Source: an uncultured Thermoplasmata archaeon
Lineage (GTDB): Archaea; Thermoplasmatota; Thermoplasmata; UBA10834
Length of the DNA stretch: 64,000 nucleotides
Direction: 5' to 3'
Assembly (NCBI GenBank): GCA_963719945.1
Contig: CAVRDX010000003.1
Span: forward strand, 32,001 to 96,000
How positions within the stretch are numbered: the stretch's first letter is position 1; each line of letters starts with the position of its first letter. The notes under the pieces are model-generated. The model had not been told where the DNA came from. It saw nothing but the letters and a program-made list of their open reading frames with translations, and did no database searches. The translations under genes and the position numbers were made by a program. Positions 34,320 to 42,507 of this stretch are shown here, in pieces.

Positions 34320-35513
34320 TCAGAGCATGATGATATCTGATATTCCATTCTCCACCACCACCTTCACGCTCGTACCGAGTCTCTCGATCACGAGCCCATT
34401 CACACTGTCTGACACGAATATCTTGCCCGTTGCGTCCACCCCCCATACCGAATCGCTGAGTCCATCATCTATTGTGCCTCTCATCGTTCCGTTCTCATAG
34501 AAGACGAGTATCTCGTCGCTGTTGTTCGCTACGAACAAGTTCCTTTCGTCGAGAGCGTAGGCACTAGCGGATATGTCCGTTGTCGATGAGAGCATGTTCG
34601 ACCCGATTATCTGAGCTCCTTCACTTCCGTCGAGTCCGTATCTGTCCATATGGTTGCTTCCGGAGCTGTTGTCAAGGACGAATATGTATCCGCCTACGGA
34701 GATGTCTATCGGGCCAGTCATCGTGCCTCCGTTGGCGATTAGTTGATCGACGAAGACGCCAGTCGATTTGTTGAATCTGTCAATATGGTCGAAGTTGTCG
34801 ATAACGTAGATGTAATCCGAATCGACTGCAAATGATGTCGGTGATGGCGCGTTCGTTCCATCCGAGATGAACACATCTATCCAGTTTCCGTCTGTGTCGA
34901 ATCTGTCAATGTGTGAAGCTTCATCTAGAACGTATAGATACTCACCGAATACCTTGACATCACTGGGCGCCACCATATGTGTGGCGTCTGTGATTGTGAA
35001 ACTGAATGTGCCAGTTAGTGTGAAAACCTCAATGCTGTTTCCGTCGAGGACATATGCGCATTCGCCCACCGATAGACTGGTCGGCGAGGAAAGTCGGGCA
35101 TCGTTCGCAACGAGGTTCCTTAGACCTACGTCAGGATCGAAATCAATCGATGGGTCGTTGACGGTGATTGTGAGTACCTCTAGTGGCAGCCAGATATCTG
35201 TCGTCTTGCCTTCGATCGCTGTGGTGAATGATGACAAGAACAGGCCGTCGATGAGGAGATTCGATTCGCTTATCTCAAGAGCGATGCTTCCAGTATTCTG
35301 TACAAGGACCTCGAGCTCATTCGTGTCGCGATAGTAATTCACGTCGATTATGCTGATCTGAGTCTGCGATCTTTCACTCATATCATCGTATCTTTCGTCC
35401 AGAGATACGGTTACTTTATCAAACGCATCGGTTACCGAGGCGTAAAGAATAGAAAAAAGAACGAGAAAGGCGGCGAAGAAAATCGCCATTGTAGCCGAGA
35501 CACTAAACCCCAT
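34320..35513 (-). CDS. arlF: Archaellum stator protein ArlF with inserted beta-propeller
   Basis: MGFSVS N-terminus, NTGS..L, LLIDG, WLPLE and C-terminal VKVVVENG; ~240-aa insert of NHL-like YVLD...IDRF..DG repeats. Confidence 0.82.
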   Translation of the reverse strand: MGFSVSATMAIFFAAFLVLFSILYASVTDAFDKVTVSLDERYDDMSERSQTQISIIDVNYYRDTNELEVLVQNTGSIALEISESNLLIDGLFLSSFTTAIEGKTTDIWLPLEVLTITVNDPSIDFDPDVGLRNLVANDARLSSPTSLSVGECAYVLDGNSIEVFTLTGTFSFTITDATHMVAPSDVKVFGEYLYVLDEASHIDRFDTDGNWIDVFISDGTNAPSPTSFAVDSDYIYVIDNFDHIDRFNKSTGVFVDQLIANGGTMTGPIDISVGGYIFVLDNSSGSNHMDRYGLDGSEGAQIIGSNMLSSTTDISASAYALDERNLFVANNSDEILVFYENGTMRGTIDDGLSDSVWGVDATGKIFVSDSVNGLVIERLGTSVKVVVENGISDIIML

Positions 35514-36687
35514 GAAAGCCCTCCAGACTCTCCTTGAACTTCGATATATTCTGTTCGAGGGAGTTTAGCCTATCCTTGTCGACTTCGAGCCCTGCGATCT
35601 TCTGGACGAACAGGAGAGACTTCAGATGGTCGTCGGCTGACAGGCGCCAGTCTTCGACCTTCTTGTAGGGTGCGGCTTGTGGCGGGGGTAGATCCCTGAA
35701 GACATCCTCACGGACCTCTTCTTGGCCCATGTATTTCGTGATGTCTTGCATCTCACCGCGTGCGTAGGACATGATTTCTGATTTCACATCCTCGCTGATC
35801 CATCCTACGTCAACATAGTAGTCAAGGACGAGCGATATCTTGTCTCTCGTAACGCGCTCGAACAGGAATTCTATCCAGCGCATGACAAGGACGAGTGTGA
35901 GGTAATCGTGTGGTATGTATGCGAGCAACGGTTTCTTATTGTGCTTGCTCCTCGCTGCCGCACGTACCTGTCTCTCATATCTCTCGTCGGTCGATGTCTT
36001 ATCCATCGTCGGTGGAGTCTCTCTCCTTTCTCCAATAGATACAGTCCCCAAGGGCATTGTCGACGTCCCTGGCTCCCACGGGGTGGCGTCCCTACTTTTC
36101 TTTGATGCCGCGCTCCTAGCTGAAGATGGCGTTTCGATCTCTCCTTCGCCAAACGGTCTGAACTCTGGGATATCTCCGTCGAGTTCGATCGTTCCGAACG
36201 AGATCTCGTCAGCTGGTTTCTCCATCTGCTTCTCCGCCGGTTTGGGAGGAGACTGTTCCTTCGGAGGAGCTTCTTTCTCTGACATATCAATGAACGGGTT
36301 GAACTTCGCGGAGACGACTTCGTATACTGACAGGAGCTTTCTGATGTCCTGGTCCATCTGGGTGAGTTTGTCTCGGACCTTCGAGTTCTCGTTCCGCTCA
36401 TTCGTCAGAGCGGAGTCGATTCTCCCGATCTTGTCTTCGATCTCTTCCAGGCGACCAAGGAGCTCGCTGAGCTCCTTCACACCAGTAAGTCCTCCGGCAC
36501 CCGAACTATCGTCTTCGAGGTAGTCCTCCTCGTCTGTGGGCGACACTATTTCTGATCCGTCGCCCCCTTCTGCTGCGTCATCGAAAGTCTCCTCTTCCGT
36601 ATCATCGAACTCGTCCTCGAAGTCTTTCAACTTCCTACGAGCTGAGGAACCATCTTTTCCAGGTTTCTTGCGGAACAGGCCGGCCAT
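35503..36687 (-). CDS. arlCDE: ArlC-ArlD/E fusion (archaellum switch-complex protein)
   Basis: Coiled coil plus LLSVYEVVS..FNPF (ArlC-like); WIEFL, LDYY...GWIS, L...DHLKSLLF (ArlD/E-like). Confidence 0.85.
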   Translation of the reverse strand: MAGLFRKKPGKDGSSARRKLKDFEDEFDDTEEETFDDAAEGGDGSEIVSPTDEEDYLEDDSSGAGGLTGVKELSELLGRLEEIEDKIGRIDSALTNERNENSKVRDKLTQMDQDIRKLLSVYEVVSAKFNPFIDMSEKEAPPKEQSPPKPAEKQMEKPADEISFGTIELDGDIPEFRPFGEGEIETPSSARSAASKKSRDATPWEPGTSTMPLGTVSIGERRETPPTMDKTSTDERYERQVRAAARSKHNKKPLLAYIPHDYLTLVLVMRWIEFLFERVTRDKISLVLDYYVDVGWISEDVKSEIMSYARGEMQDITKYMGQEEVREDVFRDLPPPQAAPYKKVEDWRLSADDHLKSLLFVQKIAGLEVDKDRLNSLEQNISKFKESLEGFHGV

Positions 36688-36729
36688 TTTCGATACACCT
36701 AACCCCGTGCAGTCATGGGAAAACATCTT

Positions 36730-36771
36730 CCCTCACCTCTTAGAAAAGAGGTGAGGGGGAGAAATCTCCCC
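36730..36771 (-). terminator. Tandem hairpins between archaellin A and arlCDE (partial terminator or mRNA stabiliser)
   Basis: 12-bp perfect stem CCCTCACCTCTT/AAGAGGTGAGGG (36730-36757) overlapping GGGGAGA/TCTCCCC stem. Confidence 0.55.
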
Positions 36772-36800
36772 AAATTGGGATTGATTGAGCTAGTGTCTCT

Positions 36801-37421
36801 CTACTTGAGCACCACTACGCTGCTAGCCTCGAGGGTCGCAGGAGCGGTTATCTCCAGGTATGTCGGCACACCGTGCTTGGGCATCAACAGGAGCGTCAGC
36901 TGTTCTTGTGGGTCGAGCTCCATTGTTATTCCCGTCGCGGTGGTGAGGTCGATTTGTACCTGGAATACATCTCCGGCGGTCATCATGACTGCAGCTGTTG
37001 CTGGGTCCATGTCTCTGAGCTCAGTTGCGGTGAACTCTGTGGCGGATGCTGCAGCTGCGTATGAGAGCGTGATTTCAGACGCTACTCCTCCGCCGATGGT
37101 CTGCGTAACCTCAATTATCGTGTTCTCGAGGTTGATCCCAGGGCTACCAGCGATCAAGGCTATCTTGATGTAGATCGTGTCGATGGCTGGAGTCGCATCT
37201 GTCGATCCCCATACGGCAAGGACCTTGAATCCACAGGCAACGTCCTGCAGAGCCTCGTCACCAGTCGACTCGGCCTGCTGTTGCAGCTTGTATGCAGTCT
37301 GGACCAAGACACCCGCTGCCACAGCGGCAACGATTATCATGGCAATGAAGATAAGAAGGGTTCCAACACCCATCTCGCCTTCCTCTTCCATTTTTCTCTT
37401 TTTCCACGCTAGTTTGTTCAT
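36801..37421 (-). CDS. arlB: Archaellin A (206 aa; first gene of the arl operon)
   Basis: Class III signal peptide G/EMGVGTLLIFIAMIIVAAVAAGVL; L.AGS..INL; GD; P..G.P motifs; SD GGAGG. Confidence 0.93.
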   Translation of the reverse strand: MNKLAWKKRKMEEEGEMGVGTLLIFIAMIIVAAVAAGVLVQTAYKLQQQAESTGDEALQDVACGFKVLAVWGSTDATPAIDTIYIKIALIAGSPGINLENTIIEVTQTIGGGVASEITLSYAAAASATEFTATELRDMDPATAAVMMTAGDVFQVQIDLTTATGITMELDPQEQLTLLLMPKHGVPTYLEITAPATLEASSVVVLK

Positions 37422-37431
37422 TGTTTCTATT

Positions 37432-37797
37432 CCTCCAACTTCGCATCTCTTCTCGAGTCACGTACCCGAGGGACGTTCGGCACCCTGCCGACGAGGAGAT
37501 CTTCCGAGCCGATCCTAGCTCTCCTGCCTATTGACAGGACATCGAGAGCATCCGCTACCCGATGGTTTGTCCAAAAAGCACGGTTTTTCAACGCCCGCCG
37601 TGAATCTTGTCTAGCACTGGGGCGATTACACAACTCCTGGCGACAGCCAGACCGTTCCATCCTAACTGGTCTTCTCGCCTCACCTCCGATGGCAACCGCC
37701 GCCGTGCCCTGCAGCGGGGAGTGAGAGAGATGCACCCCTCAAGGTTGTGCTTGAGAGGCACTATCCACAGGGCATGTAGACCTCTCTCGAGTCTACT
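37432..37797 (-). ncRNA. Candidate ~350-nt structured leader or sRNA upstream of archaellin A
   Basis: Lies between TATA-like box (37805-37818) and SD; at least 8 hairpins visible by eye; long-range GCATCTCT/AGAGATGC pairing; complementary to other arl leaders. Confidence 0.6.
37755..37782. repeat. 28-bp element, perfect inverted repeat of 39752-39779
   Basis: GAGGCACTATCCACAGGGCATGTAGACC is the reverse complement of GGTCTACATGCCCTGTGGATAGTGCCTC. Confidence 0.95.
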
Positions 37798-37845
37798 ATC
37801 CAGAATATATATCTTAAACATTAGTATACAAATGTCTAGAAAAAT

Positions 37846-37865
37846 TATGAGAAGTGATTCTCATA
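37846..37865. promoter_or_regulatory. Palindromic operator upstream of the archaellin A promoter
   Basis: TATGAGAA-gtga-TTCTCATA (8-bp perfect arms), containing the GTGATTCTCAT box. Confidence 0.6.
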
Positions 37866-37890
37866 GGTGATTTGCGCATTCGTCAAATCA

Positions 37891-39612
37891 TCAGACGAGA
37901 TTCACATATCTGTAAGCCCCAAGATATGGGATTGTACAGTCCTCTATCGTAGGCTGGCCTATGCTCGGAATGAATTTCATCGAGAACGATGATTCGGCGT
38001 GAAGGTTCAGTCCTATCTCGCCGGCGTCGACGAATATTTTCACGAGTCCTCCATCCGAGAGAGAGAATGTGCTTGCGAATTCGCTATCTGGATCCCTAAG
38101 TATCTGGACAGAGAAGCTGTCAGCAGTCGCCCCGGCTGGCCCGAATTCTGCAGCATTGAATGCCAGCGTGACATCCTTCTCCCCGTCAGTGATCTCTATC
38201 ATCAGAGACGTGAACAGGATCGGCATGCTTCCAGGCACTGTCTTGACCTTGATCTCGATCATCTGGATGGTGTTCGATGGTATCACTGGTTGTGCATAGT
38301 TGTCTGCCGCATCCACAGCTACTACGGTATAGTAGTACAGGGTTCCAGACACTCCTGAGTAATCACAGTACTGGGTCGTGTTGCTGCTGACCGATGCGAT
38401 GGGGGTGGAGTTCCTCAACTCCTCGACGCTATCGAGCGCGGACATGCTGGTACTCCTGTAGATTAGGTATTCACCGATGTACGTCTCACTATCGGACGCT
38501 TCGTTCCAGTTCATCTCGACAGATTGTATATATTGCGTAGCACCAAATGCCTGCACTGCGGACGGAGCGATGGAATCCACGACTTCAGCATTGTATGTGA
38601 GCGTTCCCAATGAAACCTGGTTCCCCGCTCGGTCTTCGACTATTACATAATACGTATAGGTCCCCTCATCACTAGGGGCGTCAGAATAGCTAGACGCAGT
38701 GGAATTAAGTGCCGCAATGAGCTCCGCTCCGATCGATATGGAGATGACCCTTCGTCCATCGACCATCTCGCTAGATAGCGACCCAACCGATACGGTGCTC
38801 CTATAGAGCAGCTGCTGGTCGACGCCACTGCCCGCATCGGTGGCTGGAACCCAGAAGAGCATGACAGAATACTCATCAGGTCTCGATGTGCTCGTCATGG
38901 ATCCACCTGCGGGTATGGTCTGATCCTCATCATGACTTGCTGCATCCGTGGATGCAGAACTGTCAATCGGAGTATAGAGGGCACGGTTTCCAGCTGCGTC
39001 CACTCCGACTATTGCATACGCATATGACGTGGAATTATCGTCCCTGGCGGTATAATCCATATACTGTCTATCTGACCCGAAGCCAGTTGTCAACGTTGCC
39101 AATTCATAGGATGGATTGAGTTGATCGAGTGTCAATAATCGATTCCTTGCGATCTGTTCGTTGAACGCGGCAGGATTGGTCGGGTCATATACCGAGGTCC
39201 TGTAGATGATCTCCTCAGCCAACCCAGAGCCATAATCAATGGCGGAGGTCCAGTTCAGAACTATTCGGAGTGGTGCAACTCCGTCGTTTGAAGCAGTTGC
39301 GTTCCATAATATGCCACCAGTCGGCGGTTGATCATCTCTCGATGGCATATACCCGGAAGCGATTGAAGAATCTGCACCGTCAGGGTTCCTGTCGCCTGCG
39401 ACATTGACGACGGTAAGTCCTCCAGAGACCTCTGAAACGGCATCGTCGACAGTTCTCTGTGCCTGTTGCTGCAGCAACGCTGCAGCATAAAGTATCAATG
39501 ACGCTGCGATTGCAGCGACCAGCACCATCGCAATGAAAATGATAAGTGTACCTATACCGACATCGGCTTCTTCATCCGTCTTGATGCTCGTTCTTGCTTT
39601 TTTGAGCCCCAT
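37891..39612 (-). CDS. arlB: Archaellin B, giant (573 aa) with about 3 fibronectin-III-like inserts
   Basis: A/DVGIGTLIIFIAMVLVAAIAA N-terminus; archaellin C-terminal half (PGS.PI, IEITDG, RDPD, IP..G.P); three W..A.D..SG/T...IYR(S/T)...Y.Y.(IV)..VD.A.N repeats in between. Confidence 0.88.
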   Translation of the reverse strand: MGLKKARTSIKTDEEADVGIGTLIIFIAMVLVAAIAASLILYAAALLQQQAQRTVDDAVSEVSGGLTVVNVAGDRNPDGADSSIASGYMPSRDDQPPTGGILWNATASNDGVAPLRIVLNWTSAIDYGSGLAEEIIYRTSVYDPTNPAAFNEQIARNRLLTLDQLNPSYELATLTTGFGSDRQYMDYTARDDNSTSYAYAIVGVDAAGNRALYTPIDSSASTDAASHDEDQTIPAGGSMTSTSRPDEYSVMLFWVPATDAGSGVDQQLLYRSTVSVGSLSSEMVDGRRVISISIGAELIAALNSTASSYSDAPSDEGTYTYYVIVEDRAGNQVSLGTLTYNAEVVDSIAPSAVQAFGATQYIQSVEMNWNEASDSETYIGEYLIYRSTSMSALDSVEELRNSTPIASVSSNTTQYCDYSGVSGTLYYYTVVAVDAADNYAQPVIPSNTIQMIEIKVKTVPGSMPILFTSLMIEITDGEKDVTLAFNAAEFGPAGATADSFSVQILRDPDSEFASTFSLSDGGLVKIFVDAGEIGLNLHAESSFSMKFIPSIGQPTIEDCTIPYLGAYRYVNLV

Positions 39613-39751
39613 CCCAGTCCTCTCCGGTGTGCGAGGGCATGGAACGTAGCGTTGTTGAGCCTAGAGCATCCGCTAACTCATGGCACCATCAGAAATTATC
39701 CCGACTTGTTGAGCCGGTAATATATTACTCGTCAGAAAGACGAGAGTCTAC

Positions 39752-39794
39752 GGTCTACATGCCCTGTGGATAGTGCCTCGAGATGCGTTGGAGG
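39752..39794. repeat. Composite antisense element in the archaellin B leader
   Basis: 39752-39779 is the inverted copy of 37755-37782; 39780-39794 (GAGATGCGTTGGAGG) is the inverted copy of 37432-37449 lacking 3 nt. Confidence 0.9.
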
Positions 39795-39978
39795 CTAGTG
39801 ATTATCATGCGTTTGAAGATTATATAAGACAACAAGCCGTGATTTTCATGCAAGATAATCAGATTATTTGAATCAAAAATATCAATTGTAAGGGGTTTCT
39901 TTGGGATATTCCCAGACGCTGATATGCCCTGTTTGTCAGTCTCTCTCAATTCTCGTTGTTCGGATCAACCATCGCCGG

Positions 39979-40461
39979 TCATACTCTGTAATAATCGGCA
40001 AGGCTGGTCTCGAATCGACCGATCCGTTCCTGCACTTCACACCAGATGTTCTTGTCAACATCGATGCCCGCCAGCTCCATGACGAACATCCAGGACTTCA
40101 TATGGTCTTCCGGTGTGAGCCTCCACTCCTTCTCCTCCGTCGCAAGCGCGAGGGCATCCAAGGAGCTTTTCCTTCCGGGCCGTTTCTTGGTCACTACGAG
40201 ATTGTGGTCTATGATCTCATCGTCCAGGATCGCCTCTGCCATCTCCGGTTCGGCTTTCTTTGTGCCTTGAGATACAGATGCCAAGTACTCTGCGATGTCC
40301 TCTCCTATCCATCCTATTCTGCTATAGAAGCTGAACAATCTGGGAATGGCTTCGATGTCTATCCTGTCCATCAGGAACGACATCCATCGCATGATGATCA
40401 TGTTGGTTCTGGAATCTATGTCGAAACTCTCCAGTGCCGAGTACCGTTCTTCTGGATCCAT
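39979..40461 (-). CDS. arlD: Stand-alone ArlD/E-family protein
   Basis: MRWMSFL, FYSRIGWI, WRLTPEDHMKS motifs, paralogous to the C-terminus of 35503-36687. Confidence 0.82.
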   Translation of the reverse strand: MDPEERYSALESFDIDSRTNMIIMRWMSFLMDRIDIEAIPRLFSFYSRIGWIGEDIAEYLASVSQGTKKAEPEMAEAILDDEIIDHNLVVTKKRPGRKSSLDALALATEEKEWRLTPEDHMKSWMFVMELAGIDVDKNIWCEVQERIGRFETSLADYYRV

Positions 40462-40490
40462 GCACGTTCCTCCTTTCTTGAGATCCCTCT

Positions 40491-41135
40491 TCAGGTCAGT
40501 ATCTCATATGTGTTCGACAGGACCGAAGGTGTGGTGATTAGCACATAGGTCGGTATCCCGTGCTTCGGTATCAGGAGTATCGTAGCGTCCTGCTGGGTGA
40601 CGAGGCTCATGTCCGTAGGCAGTTGTTCAGCCAGGTCGATGTGCAACAGCGCAACATCTCCCTGAGTGATTCCCACATCTGCTGCGGTCCATGCAGCGAT
40701 ATTCAAGGGATATGTGTCCCTCAGACTCGCCACATCGAAAGTGCCATCCGTGGATGCGACAGTGTAGTCTGGACATGATAGCGTCTCATCTGCCTCTCCA
40801 TTTGATATCTCGATTATCAATGTGGCCAGGTTGATCACCGGGCTGCCCGCTGTCAGCGCCACCTTCAGGTACACATCAGTGATGACCAATGCACCCGTGC
40901 CATCATCCGCCGTCATTCCATATATCGCCAACACTTTCAGACCCGTTGCTACTTCCTGCAATGCCTGGTCGCCTGTCGCTTCTGCCTGTTGCTGTAGTTC
41001 GTATGCGGTTTGGACTAGGACGCCAGCTGCTACGGCGGCGACTAATATCATCGCTATGAAGATCAACAACGTGCCGACCCCCATCTCCCCTTCCTCACCC
41101 ATACGAATCCTTCTGGGCTTGGGTATCTTTTCCAT
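40491..41135 (-). CDS. arlB: Archaellin C (214 aa)
   Basis: G/EMGVGTLLIFIAMILVAAVAAGVL; LTAGSPVINL; IPKHGIPT; close paralogue of archaellin A. Confidence 0.93.
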   Translation of the reverse strand: MEKIPKPRRIRMGEEGEMGVGTLLIFIAMILVAAVAAGVLVQTAYELQQQAEATGDQALQEVATGLKVLAIYGMTADDGTGALVITDVYLKVALTAGSPVINLATLIIEISNGEADETLSCPDYTVASTDGTFDVASLRDTYPLNIAAWTAADVGITQGDVALLHIDLAEQLPTDMSLVTQQDATILLIPKHGIPTYVLITTPSVLSNTYEILT

Positions 41136-41284
41136 CTCTTTCCCTCCTCTGTGGTCGCGGAGAGGTCAGTCATCCAAAATCCAGACTGCATGAGTTGAGA
41201 ATGTCGTGTGCGGCGTGGAGCGCCCACTCTCAATTCTCAATCATCACCAGAATCATGGTGCCTGGCCTATCCGCGTAGTGTGAT

Positions 41285-41329
41285 TCTCTTTCACTCCCGA
41301 GGTAGGTCTACAATTGCCCTGTGGATAGT
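41285..41329. repeat. Third, imperfect copy of the element in the archaellin C leader
   Basis: AGGTCTACAatTGCCCTGTGGATAGT (41304-41329, 2-nt insertion) and TCTCTTTCACTCCC (41285-41298; 13/14 inverted match to 37717-37730). Confidence 0.85.
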
Positions 41330-41509
41330 CCAAGCGTCTTTTCTCTCGAGTGCGTTAGTGCCGCCTCTGAGAGCTATATCTGATTCTCATGTATGATAAA
41401 AATGGTTGTGTCGTGATTCTCTTTTTAGAAAATGACAAAATCAGTCCGAAAAGAATAGAACGTGAAATGGAGGGGAGTTAAAAGGCCCCCTTAATTTAGG
41501 AAAGGTTAT

Positions 41510-41887
41510 TCAGAGCTCGCCTCTTGGTTTCGGCGTAGCCATGTTCTGAACTATCTCCAGCGGTGCGGATCTGTAGTTCATATCCACTTTCATGTGCAGC
41601 GTGCCTCTCTCGTAGACAAGGGTGACGCTGCCTATTCGGGACTTGTATACCTTGTATCTTTTCCCATCCGCCGTTAACTCGCTGCCTTCCTGTTCGATCA
41701 GACCTGCCGCGGACAGCTCTCGAAGTTTTCGATAGCAGCTCGCAAGCGGTATGTCGAACATGAACGCGAGTTCTCTTGCGCTCCTAGCTTTATGGCTAGA
41801 CGCTGCAAGGATGTTCATGTTGTATTGGTCCGTCAATATCTGAGCGATGCCGAGCTTAGCATGCGCTATATCTGTATCGGTGGCCGT
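41510..41887 (-). CDS. ArsR-like winged-helix transcription regulator 1
   Basis: SARELAFMFDIPLASCYRKLREL...GLI...GKRYKVYKS; nearest canonical start is TTG 41836, but similarity to the paralogue extends upstream towards ACG 41887. Confidence 0.8.
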   Translation of the reverse strand, partial: TATDTDIAHAKLGIAQILTDQYNMNILAASSHKARSARELAFMFDIPLASCYRKLRELSAAGLIEQEGSELTADGKRYKVYKSRIGSVTLVYERGTLHMKVDMNYRSAPLEIVQNMATPKPRGEL

Positions 41888-42138
41888 TTTATCCCCTCAC
41901 ACCAGGGGGGAGTTAGAGCTATATCCCGTCCCTTATCCTGGGGAAACTAATTCTAGGATATATATAATTGTCTTTTTGTTTCTAAACCATGAGAATCATT
42001 CGTACTCCTCAGATCGTAGATCTGTCGTTCGATTCTAGAGCATCCAAGTGAGGGGACCACTATTGATGATCATGCTCGACTTATCGTCGGTGATATTCTC
42101 TGATTGGAATTGAATGAGATTGTTTATGAACAGTTATC

Positions 42139-42507
42139 ATGAATGTAATGCAGGAGGCTCCCCCTTCGATGAATGCCTACGAACTGTCGAAACTCTTGAT
42201 CGACGAGTATTCCGCGAAGATACTCACGTATGCCAGAGACAAACCTCGATCAGTTCAGGACATGTGCCAGAGGCTCGACATACCCGTGACGCTCGGATAT
42301 CGGAGGGTCAACACACTTCTTAACGAAGGCCTCCTGAGTTGTGAGGGGAGATCCCTAACTCAGAGGGGCAAGTGGACCAAGCTGTATGTTTCTCAGGTCC
42401 GACGAGCCCAGATCTTCTTCGATGATGGTAAGGTGCGTCTGAAGTTCGAGTTCAAGACGGGTCAGGTTCGATGGTCGGATGATTGGGAAGCTGCCCCGGC
42501 CGTATGA
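42139..42507 (+). CDS. ArsR-like winged-helix transcription regulator 2 (divergent paralogue)
   Basis: DEYSAKIL, SVQDMCQRLDIPVTLGYRRVNTL...GLL...GKWTKLYVS. Confidence 0.85.
   Translation: MNVMQEAPPSMNAYELSKLLIDEYSAKILTYARDKPRSVQDMCQRLDIPVTLGYRRVNTLLNEGLLSCEGRSLTQRGKWTKLYVSQVRRAQIFFDDGKVRLKFEFKTGQVRWSDDWEAAPAV

Follow-up and report, generated by a model that had tools for sequence, protein, structure and literature searches.

A repeated element in the leaders of three archaellin genes as a candidate RNA pairing module in an uncultured Thermoplasmata archaeon

The archaellum locus of an uncultured Thermoplasmata archaeon contains three archaellin genes (A, B and C), and the same short element, here called E, is found in the leader region of each of them, in gene orientation in front of B and C and inverted (E') in front of A. 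The locus occupies the minus strand of the stretch of 64,000 nucleotides (nt) analysed here, referred to as the window (GCA_963719945.1, CAVRDX010000003.1, positions 32,001-96,000; the assembly has 1.78 Mb and is 87% complete), and all coordinates given are those of the window. As E is inverted in leader A, the start of the B mRNA can pair with leader A. The complementarity between the leaders is probably real as a conserved RNA feature, and from the sequence comparisons described below, the E repeat is slightly favoured to be an RNA pairing module in the 5' leaders of the paralogous archaellin mRNAs.

Element E in three archaellin leaders

A preliminary description of the stretch, made from the letters alone, had proposed three archaellin genes on the minus strand, each with its own TATA-like box. 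This was borne out by matches to the archaellin family PF01917 and by AT-rich boxes in front of the genes. The genes and the copies of the element are as follows.

36801-37421, minus strand: archaellin A gene (Pfam PF01917), start codon at 37421-37419
37891-39612, minus strand: archaellin B gene, a giant archaellin of 573 amino acids (Pfam PF01917)
40491-41135, minus strand: archaellin C gene (Pfam PF01917)
37755-37782, minus strand: E'(A), inverted copy, predicted to span leader A from about +8 to +35
39752-39779, minus strand: E(B), a sense copy, at about +18 to +45 of the giant-archaellin leader B as predicted
41305-41329, minus strand: E(C), a sense copy, at about +45 to +70 of leader C as predicted

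E'(A) and E(B) are reverse complements of one another at 28 of 28 positions, and shuffled windows (100) gave no such match. E(C), read on the minus strand from 41329 to 41305, consists of a 15-nt core, a 2-nt insertion and eight further matching nt, and the E(C) copies of relatives show 17-25 nt of unbroken complementarity to E'(A). Thus, the exact 28-nt match, the opposite orientation in A relative to B and C and the insertion in C were all found where they had initially been placed. Here, a core of 12 nt is invariant in all three copies and in all lineages, and the similarity over the 28-mer stops abruptly at both edges in all genera. Apart from one chance match with a single mismatch, the 15-nt core has no other copy in the 1.78-Mb assembly, and an origin of E as a genome-wide repeat or mobile element was ruled out on the grounds that no further copies exist there.

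For the distribution of E, 49 species genomes of uncultured Thermoplasmata were sampled in the order. E elements were present in all 17 archaellin-bearing species genomes and additionally on about eight metagenome contigs, and were found in none of the 31 genomes of the order without detectable archaellin, several of which are incomplete assemblies. A scan of metagenome and genome collections with a 14-nt pattern returned mostly chance matches and two extra genuine loci. Most archaellin loci carry two copies in gene orientation (C and B) and one inverted copy (A) at the same positions, and a few have a degenerate C or B copy. Gene order and orientation are identical in all of about 25 assemblies from several genera, including contigs of other metagenomes; the one variation is a pair of genes inserted between B and A in a second family. 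Thus, the inverted state of the A copy is older than the split of lineages whose archaellins A are only 50-79% identical, and the initial worry about an assembly artefact could be set aside, as the same arrangement recurs in these independent assemblies.

Alignments of the three intergenic regions revealed a common layout, in which a conserved dyad or half-dyad (GAGAATCA type) is followed by a TATA box rich in A and T, a spacer that varies and a conserved block. This block opens 25-30 nt past the TATA box, at the position expected for an archaeal transcription start, and the distance from the TATA-like box to the downstream element is about 27, 41 and 65 nt across the three leaders. Promoter geometry and the covarying hairpins of the sense strand both suggest starts that would place the E elements inside transcribed leaders. 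The following promoter features were located.

37805-37818, minus strand: TATA-like box of the archaellin A promoter
37855-37864, minus strand: conserved GAGAATCA motif upstream of the A TATA box
39820-39861, minus strand: archaellin B promoter, with a dyad (39861-39840, TGATTATC...GAAAATCA) and a TATA box (39828-39820)

Dyads of the GAGAATCA or TGATTTTC-N6-GAAAATCA type were seen at 37855-37864, 39840-39861, 41381-41390 and 41414-41432 and also near 41990. Such a dyad precedes every archaellin TATA box, is kept in relatives and is likely to be the binding site of a regulator of the locus.

Predicted pairing of leader B with the ribosome-binding site of archaellin A

Two segments are concerned, one at the predicted start of the B mRNA and one in front of the A start codon.

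39780-39797, minus strand: 5'-terminal segment of leader B, made up of AGC, CCUCCAAC and GCAUCUC, complementary to the region of the A ribosome-binding site (RBS)
37432-37449, minus strand: RBS-proximal target in leader A, made up of GAGAUGC, a 3-nt bulge and GUUGGAGG, which includes the Shine-Dalgarno (SD) sequence

Positions 39794-39780 of B are complementary to 37449-37443 and 37439-37432 of A (7 + 8 bp with a 3-nt bulge), in agreement with the 15 bp reported initially. The target contains GGAGG as its SD and ends 10 nt before the A start codon. RNAduplex gave -25.3 kcal/mol for the two segments of the window, with z -3.6 and p 0.003 relative to dinucleotide shuffles; every lineage of the family, M301 and G026/M323 had values of -21 to -25 kcal/mol with z between -3 and -5. 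Only analyses of short segments were kept; whole leaders run against the A RBS in RNAduplex yielded long, loop-ridden optima that were uninterpretable.

The pairing is retained where the sequences themselves have changed. In one clade, an A was lost from the CCAAC of the B segment (leaving CCAC), and GUUGG of leader A became GUGG. G026 and M323 carry another sequence on both sides (CUCCGUGCAC in the B segment and GUGCACGGAG in the A site) at the same positions, and the SD is still covered. Cognate pairs of B segment and A RBS were better than cross-family pairs by 6-8 kcal/mol (-22.0 versus -14.6 and -24.1 versus -16.5). When the first 47 nt of B were folded with the whole leader A in RNAcofold, 43 intermolecular bp were formed, divided between E' at the 5' end of A and its RBS-proximal block. 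After unfolding of cis structures, the net free-energy gain was -43 to -55 kcal/mol in four lineages, compared to -8 to -12 kcal/mol (standard deviation 3.7) for shuffled B segments. The early claim that one stretch of B of about 43 nt matches both ends of leader A including the SD was reproduced as a predicted pairing in four lineages, and the comparison with shuffled controls suggested at that time set the same gain against about -10 kcal/mol. This predicted duplex with the A RBS is the stronger argument for a selected pairing between the leaders.

Covariation of E(B) and E'(A)

When E(B) and the reverse complement of E'(A) were compared across 25 loci, 12 different haplotype pairs were obtained. 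Standard pairs occupied 94.6% of the cells, and this value fell to 30-48% when one side was slid by 1-3 nt. Five of the 28 positions were changed on both sides (all by transitions) and six of the 28 by wobble only. Within the family of the window together with M301, six of six independent single differences were compatible with G-U pairs in a sense:sense duplex and none had the opposite polarity; the chance of such an outcome is 1/64 if transitions alone are considered. The preliminary description had called for a search for compensatory changes in both A:B and A:C: these were found for A:B, as just given, and for A:C the differences had no wobble bias.

A number of observations argue against RNA pairing as the function of E, or narrow it. 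Two of the six wobble differences also fit the 5' hairpin of leader B itself, and the independent evidence is therefore nearer 1/16. The 12-nt core is invariant and hence gives no covariation signal, and it is equally compatible with recognition by a protein. Moreover, an appearance of compensatory change could arise from gene conversion between the copies, and E' is partly sequestered in local hairpins. Copy C is constrained over a core of 12-17 nt only, and its other differences from A are those without wobble bias, so that an equal role for C as an antisense partner of A, as originally suggested, was not supported. Three distant lineages (M302, M303 and M324) lack the anti-RBS segment of B and show true mismatches in the B copy outside a core of 14-25 nt, and leader A keeps all its blocks in them. 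Thus, the link between B and A is dispensable in some lineages and not universal, and the blocks of A are also under other constraints in cis, for which the RBS-proximal GAGAUGC, able to pair with GCAUCUC of the pyrimidine block of leader A itself, is an example. The initial reading of the leaders as trans-antisense regulators is supported in part: the comparisons favour the B:A pairing with its wobble and compensatory changes and do not favour an equal part of C, and action in trans and an exclusive or stoichiometric expression of the archaellins would be hypothetical consequences.

In two of the loci that have lost the anti-RBS segment of B (L302 and L303), the C leader carries GCAUCUCA, which is complementary to the RBS-proximal block of A. 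The pairing partner of A may have switched there from B to C.

Structure of the leaders

Leader A is a conserved structured region by itself, and three of its features are needed here.

37422-37790, minus strand: whole leader A, about 360 nt, structured and highly conserved
37732-37761, minus strand: hairpin P2 of leader A, overlapping the 3' end of E'
37716-37731, minus strand: invariant pyrimidine block of leader A (AUCUCUCUCACUCCCC type), containing the anti-SD-like CUCC

The consensus structure of leader A comprises 54 pairs, which are 98% paired across the alignment; 15 pairs were changed on both sides, and none of 500 shuffles equalled this result. When partners were slid as a control, only 36-50% remained paired. 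The stems are rich in G-U pairs, which would be mismatches on the opposite strand. Covarying structures of the sense strand imply that the DNA around the elements has been selected as sense-strand RNA. Small open reading frames over the elements (e.g. 37588-37821) were also considered as coding regions and were ruled out because of non-triplet indels and the covarying stems in this region.

In hairpin P2, which is among the best-supported of leader A, 4 of 11 pairs were changed on both sides and 100% were paired. The last 7 nt of E'(A) form its 5' arm, and E' is able to form a small hairpin of its own as well. The pyrimidine block may pair with the 5' GAGAGAG, with GGAGGUGAG inside the leader, with the RBS-proximal GAGAUGC or with a purine block of leader C. 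Rfam 15 contained no covariance model matching positions 36500-42500 at E <= 1, and leader A, with its length of about 360 nt and its covarying pairs, is a candidate for a new cis-regulatory RNA by itself. It also holds an invariant internal GGAGGUGA, which together with the anti-SD-like pyrimidine block and its alternative partners gives a riboswitch-like layout. Another stretch of about 13 nt (AGCGGAUGCUCU type) is common to leaders A (37545-37565) and B (39663-39683) in the same sense; it was found in leader A of all relatives and in leader B of the closest relatives only.

Leaders B and C contain shorter conserved structures.

39728-39744, minus strand: hairpin directly 3' of E in leader B, with a stem that is kept and a sequence that varies between lineages
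39633-39643, minus strand: mini-E' of leader B (UCCAUGCCCUC), with which the E core is predicted to pair in cis
41286-41298, minus strand: purine block (GGGAGUGAAAGAG type) of leader C, with complementarity to leader A's pyrimidine block

The 5'-terminal GCCUC of leader B pairs in cis with the first 5 nt of E in a predicted hairpin of 5 bp, and the mini-E', located about 20 nt ahead of the B start codon, is nearly invariant. Only some lineages have a T5 run between B and A. The purine block of leader C and the pyrimidine block of leader A were evaluated as a second conserved helix between C and A, which was rejected because the blocks are not arranged collinearly with E:E' and the complementarity is lost in G013 and G026.

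Proposed mechanism

Transcription of B is predicted to begin about 17 nt before E, so that the first ~45 nt of the mRNA would comprise an anti-SD-like segment followed by E. Leader A would begin with the complement of E (E') and end, before the start codon, with the complement of the anti-SD segment of B. As both ends of leader A carry complements, B-leader RNA could zip onto both, forming about 43 bp in two helices stacked across the junction. Binding of B might open the local hairpins of A and bury its RBS, and with the RBS buried, translation of A would be expected to fall whenever B-leader RNA is present. The B partner might be an mRNA of its own or lie in the upstream portion of a read-through transcript of B and A, in which the same pairing would take place in cis. 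Pairing with A may remodel leader B in return, given that E has a short cis partner beside the RBS of B, and leader C, with its shorter copy, is predicted to pair with E' only.

Taken together, these steps would amount to a post-transcriptional toggle of three leaders, in which the 5' end of B clamps the 5' end and the RBS of A, frees the RBS-proximal partner of E in B and thereby sets the choice of archaellin, with leader C as a competitor or sponge for E'. This complete model is offered tentatively and has a clearly smaller chance of being correct than the assignment of E as a pairing module.

Alternative explanations

Alternatively, E might be a double-stranded DNA operator just downstream of each promoter, bound by a repressor or serving as a roadblock, e.g. 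for the winged-helix-turn-helix protein of the locus; its orientation would then be irrelevant and the RNA complementarity a by-product. The gene in question is the following.

41510-41836, minus strand: winged-helix regulator gene at the head of the locus, 108 amino acids, with weak matches to HTH_20 and TrmB

An operator would agree with a 12-nt core that is invariant in three copies and all lineages and that contains a weak dyad (TCCACA, 5 nt, TGTAGA). It would also agree with the regulator, which heads every E-bearing locus and is 79-98% identical across the family (most 83-88%), a conservation far above that of the archaellins. However, regulator homologues also adjoin an ArlC/D/E-like gene in relatives that have neither archaellin genes at that locus nor E (L304-L316), and NCBIfam had no model naming the protein and no family model that marks it as EarA. 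Conservation of E is highest over one half-site and the spacer rather than over two half-sites, a 2-nt insertion is tolerated in the spacer of copy C, and the distance between TATA box and E is variable. Furthermore, a protein footprint leaves unexplained the sharp-edged 28-nt identity between B and A, the wobble-only differences and the covarying anti-RBS segment, and a more conventional candidate for an operator exists in the GAGAATCA-type dyad that precedes each TATA box.

A link to EarA was suggested by a TACAT-like string within E. In Thermococcales and Methanococcus, EarA sites (TACATA type) are positioned upstream of, and at a constant distance from, the transcription factor B recognition element (BRE) of the first archaellin, whose 5' untranslated region (UTR) has about 30 nt, and are thus not placed in the leader (PMC10665913). 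Both systems have a gene for a small helix-turn-helix regulator beside the arl genes and short repeated DNA motifs at archaellin promoters. In contrast to EarA sites, E occurs in both orientations within long leaders, 27-65 nt past the TATA box. The operator reading was weakened by these comparisons and is considered unlikely, though it is still a serious competitor and fares better than the two that follow.

It was also considered that the leaders do not interact at all, and that E and E' descend from an old inverted duplication, each block being kept for cis structure (the E' hairpin and P2 in A, E and mini-E' in B) with occasional gene conversion. Every copy indeed has predicted cis partners, the partner of E in B covers the core, and the blocks of A stay conserved despite decay on the B side. 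Yet in leader B these partners span just 5-8 nt of E, and in leader A 7 + 7 + 7 nt, and the exact, sharp-edged complementarity of 28 nt over several genera is left unexplained, as unrelated cis constraints would not hold an RNA block and its complement identical. In addition, the anti-RBS segment of B in G026 has no homologue in A and matches the A RBS nevertheless. An origin in cis constraints alone therefore appears rather improbable.

Flagellar phase variation by DNA inversion is known from Salmonella Hin/hix and from invertible promoters, and the perfect 28-bp inverted repeats flanking a flagellin-type gene with a promoter, with an arm identity typical of active invertons, could likewise be crossover sites at which a 2-kb segment (archaellin B and the A promoter) flips. 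Such an inversion is highly improbable, as none of about 25 assemblies from several genera is rearranged, no recombinase gene (PF00589, PF00239) is present on the contig (two tyrosine recombinases are located on other contigs, and a serine recombinase was not found in the 87%-complete genome), deletions would result from the third, direct copy, the arms are embedded in covarying hairpins of predicted transcribed RNA and differ by wobble-type changes in several lineages, and the flipped state would deprive A and B of a correctly placed promoter.

Relation to known systems

What is known of archaellum regulation concerns almost exclusively transcription (EarA, the Arn network and CsmR) and terminator read-through, and in the literature on archaellum regulation only transcriptional and terminator-based control was found. 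Pairing between leaders would bear on how cells with several archaellins set the ratio of their subunits. If E acts as an RNA pairing module, it would be the first post-transcriptional mechanism for the choice of archaellin as far as the literature was searched, and a rare archaeal case of mRNAs regulating one another without a dedicated small RNA.

The closest parallel comes from Listeria monocytogenes, where the hly 5' UTR is reported to pair with prsA2 mRNA and to couple the expression of both genes (PMC8722363). Both cases involve the 5' UTR of one coding mRNA pairing with the mRNA of a functionally linked gene, with no dedicated small RNA gene. The bacterial pair uses one short site, whereas the archaeal system predicted here from sequence concerns paralogous leaders with a shared inverted element, and leader A has two sites that bracket a structured domain of 300 nt, one of them over the SD.

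Pairing between the 5' and 3' UTRs of icaR is a similar case to that of yabJ-spoVG. In the latter, long-range RNA-RNA pairing in cis occurs within an operon transcript of Staphylococcus aureus (bioRxiv 10.64898/2026.09.18.752551). Separated complementary segments of one polycistronic RNA pair with each other there and thereby control a downstream cistron, which matches the cis version of the present model with a B-A read-through transcript. In contrast, those duplexes are substrates of RNase III, and the archaellin genes each have a conserved promoter of their own. Processing of the B:A duplex by RNase III was considered, and no RNase III domain was found in this genome (87% complete). As the sequences are short and well defined, the model is directly testable in vitro even though the organisms are uncultured.

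Other features of the archaellum locus

On the minus strand of the window, the order of the locus is winged-helix regulator, archaellin C, an ArlD/E-like gene, archaellin B, archaellin A, an ArlC/D/E fusion and other arl genes.

39979-40461, minus strand: ArlD/E-like gene

Archaellin B (37891-39612, minus strand) combines an archaellin N-terminus with a large insert that has a weak Ig-like (Big_13) match, and it is kept in all relatives at 54-90% identity. The regulator gene at 41510-41836 (minus strand) is divergent from a second small winged-helix-turn-helix gene at 42139-42507 (plus strand), and the two are about 31% identical to one another.

A second family (L058 = G026, L323 and L324) has a gene for a KaiC/ArlH-like ATPase and a small open reading frame of 150 amino acids between B and A. 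Archaellin A is duplicated in this family and the leader elements are kept. In two further loci, L045 (G019) and L044 (G016), in-frame stops were seen within the archaellin A match; the gene may be disrupted or frameshifted there, and the leader is conserved. Contig C140 of G001 (L059) carries a second fragment with regulator and archaellin C that resembles the G016 lineage and is unlike the locus of G001 itself, which suggests a mixed bin. Within the window, 34320-35513 (minus strand) encodes an ArlF/G-like protein of 397 amino acids, an unusual length, with a weak match to the archaellin domain.

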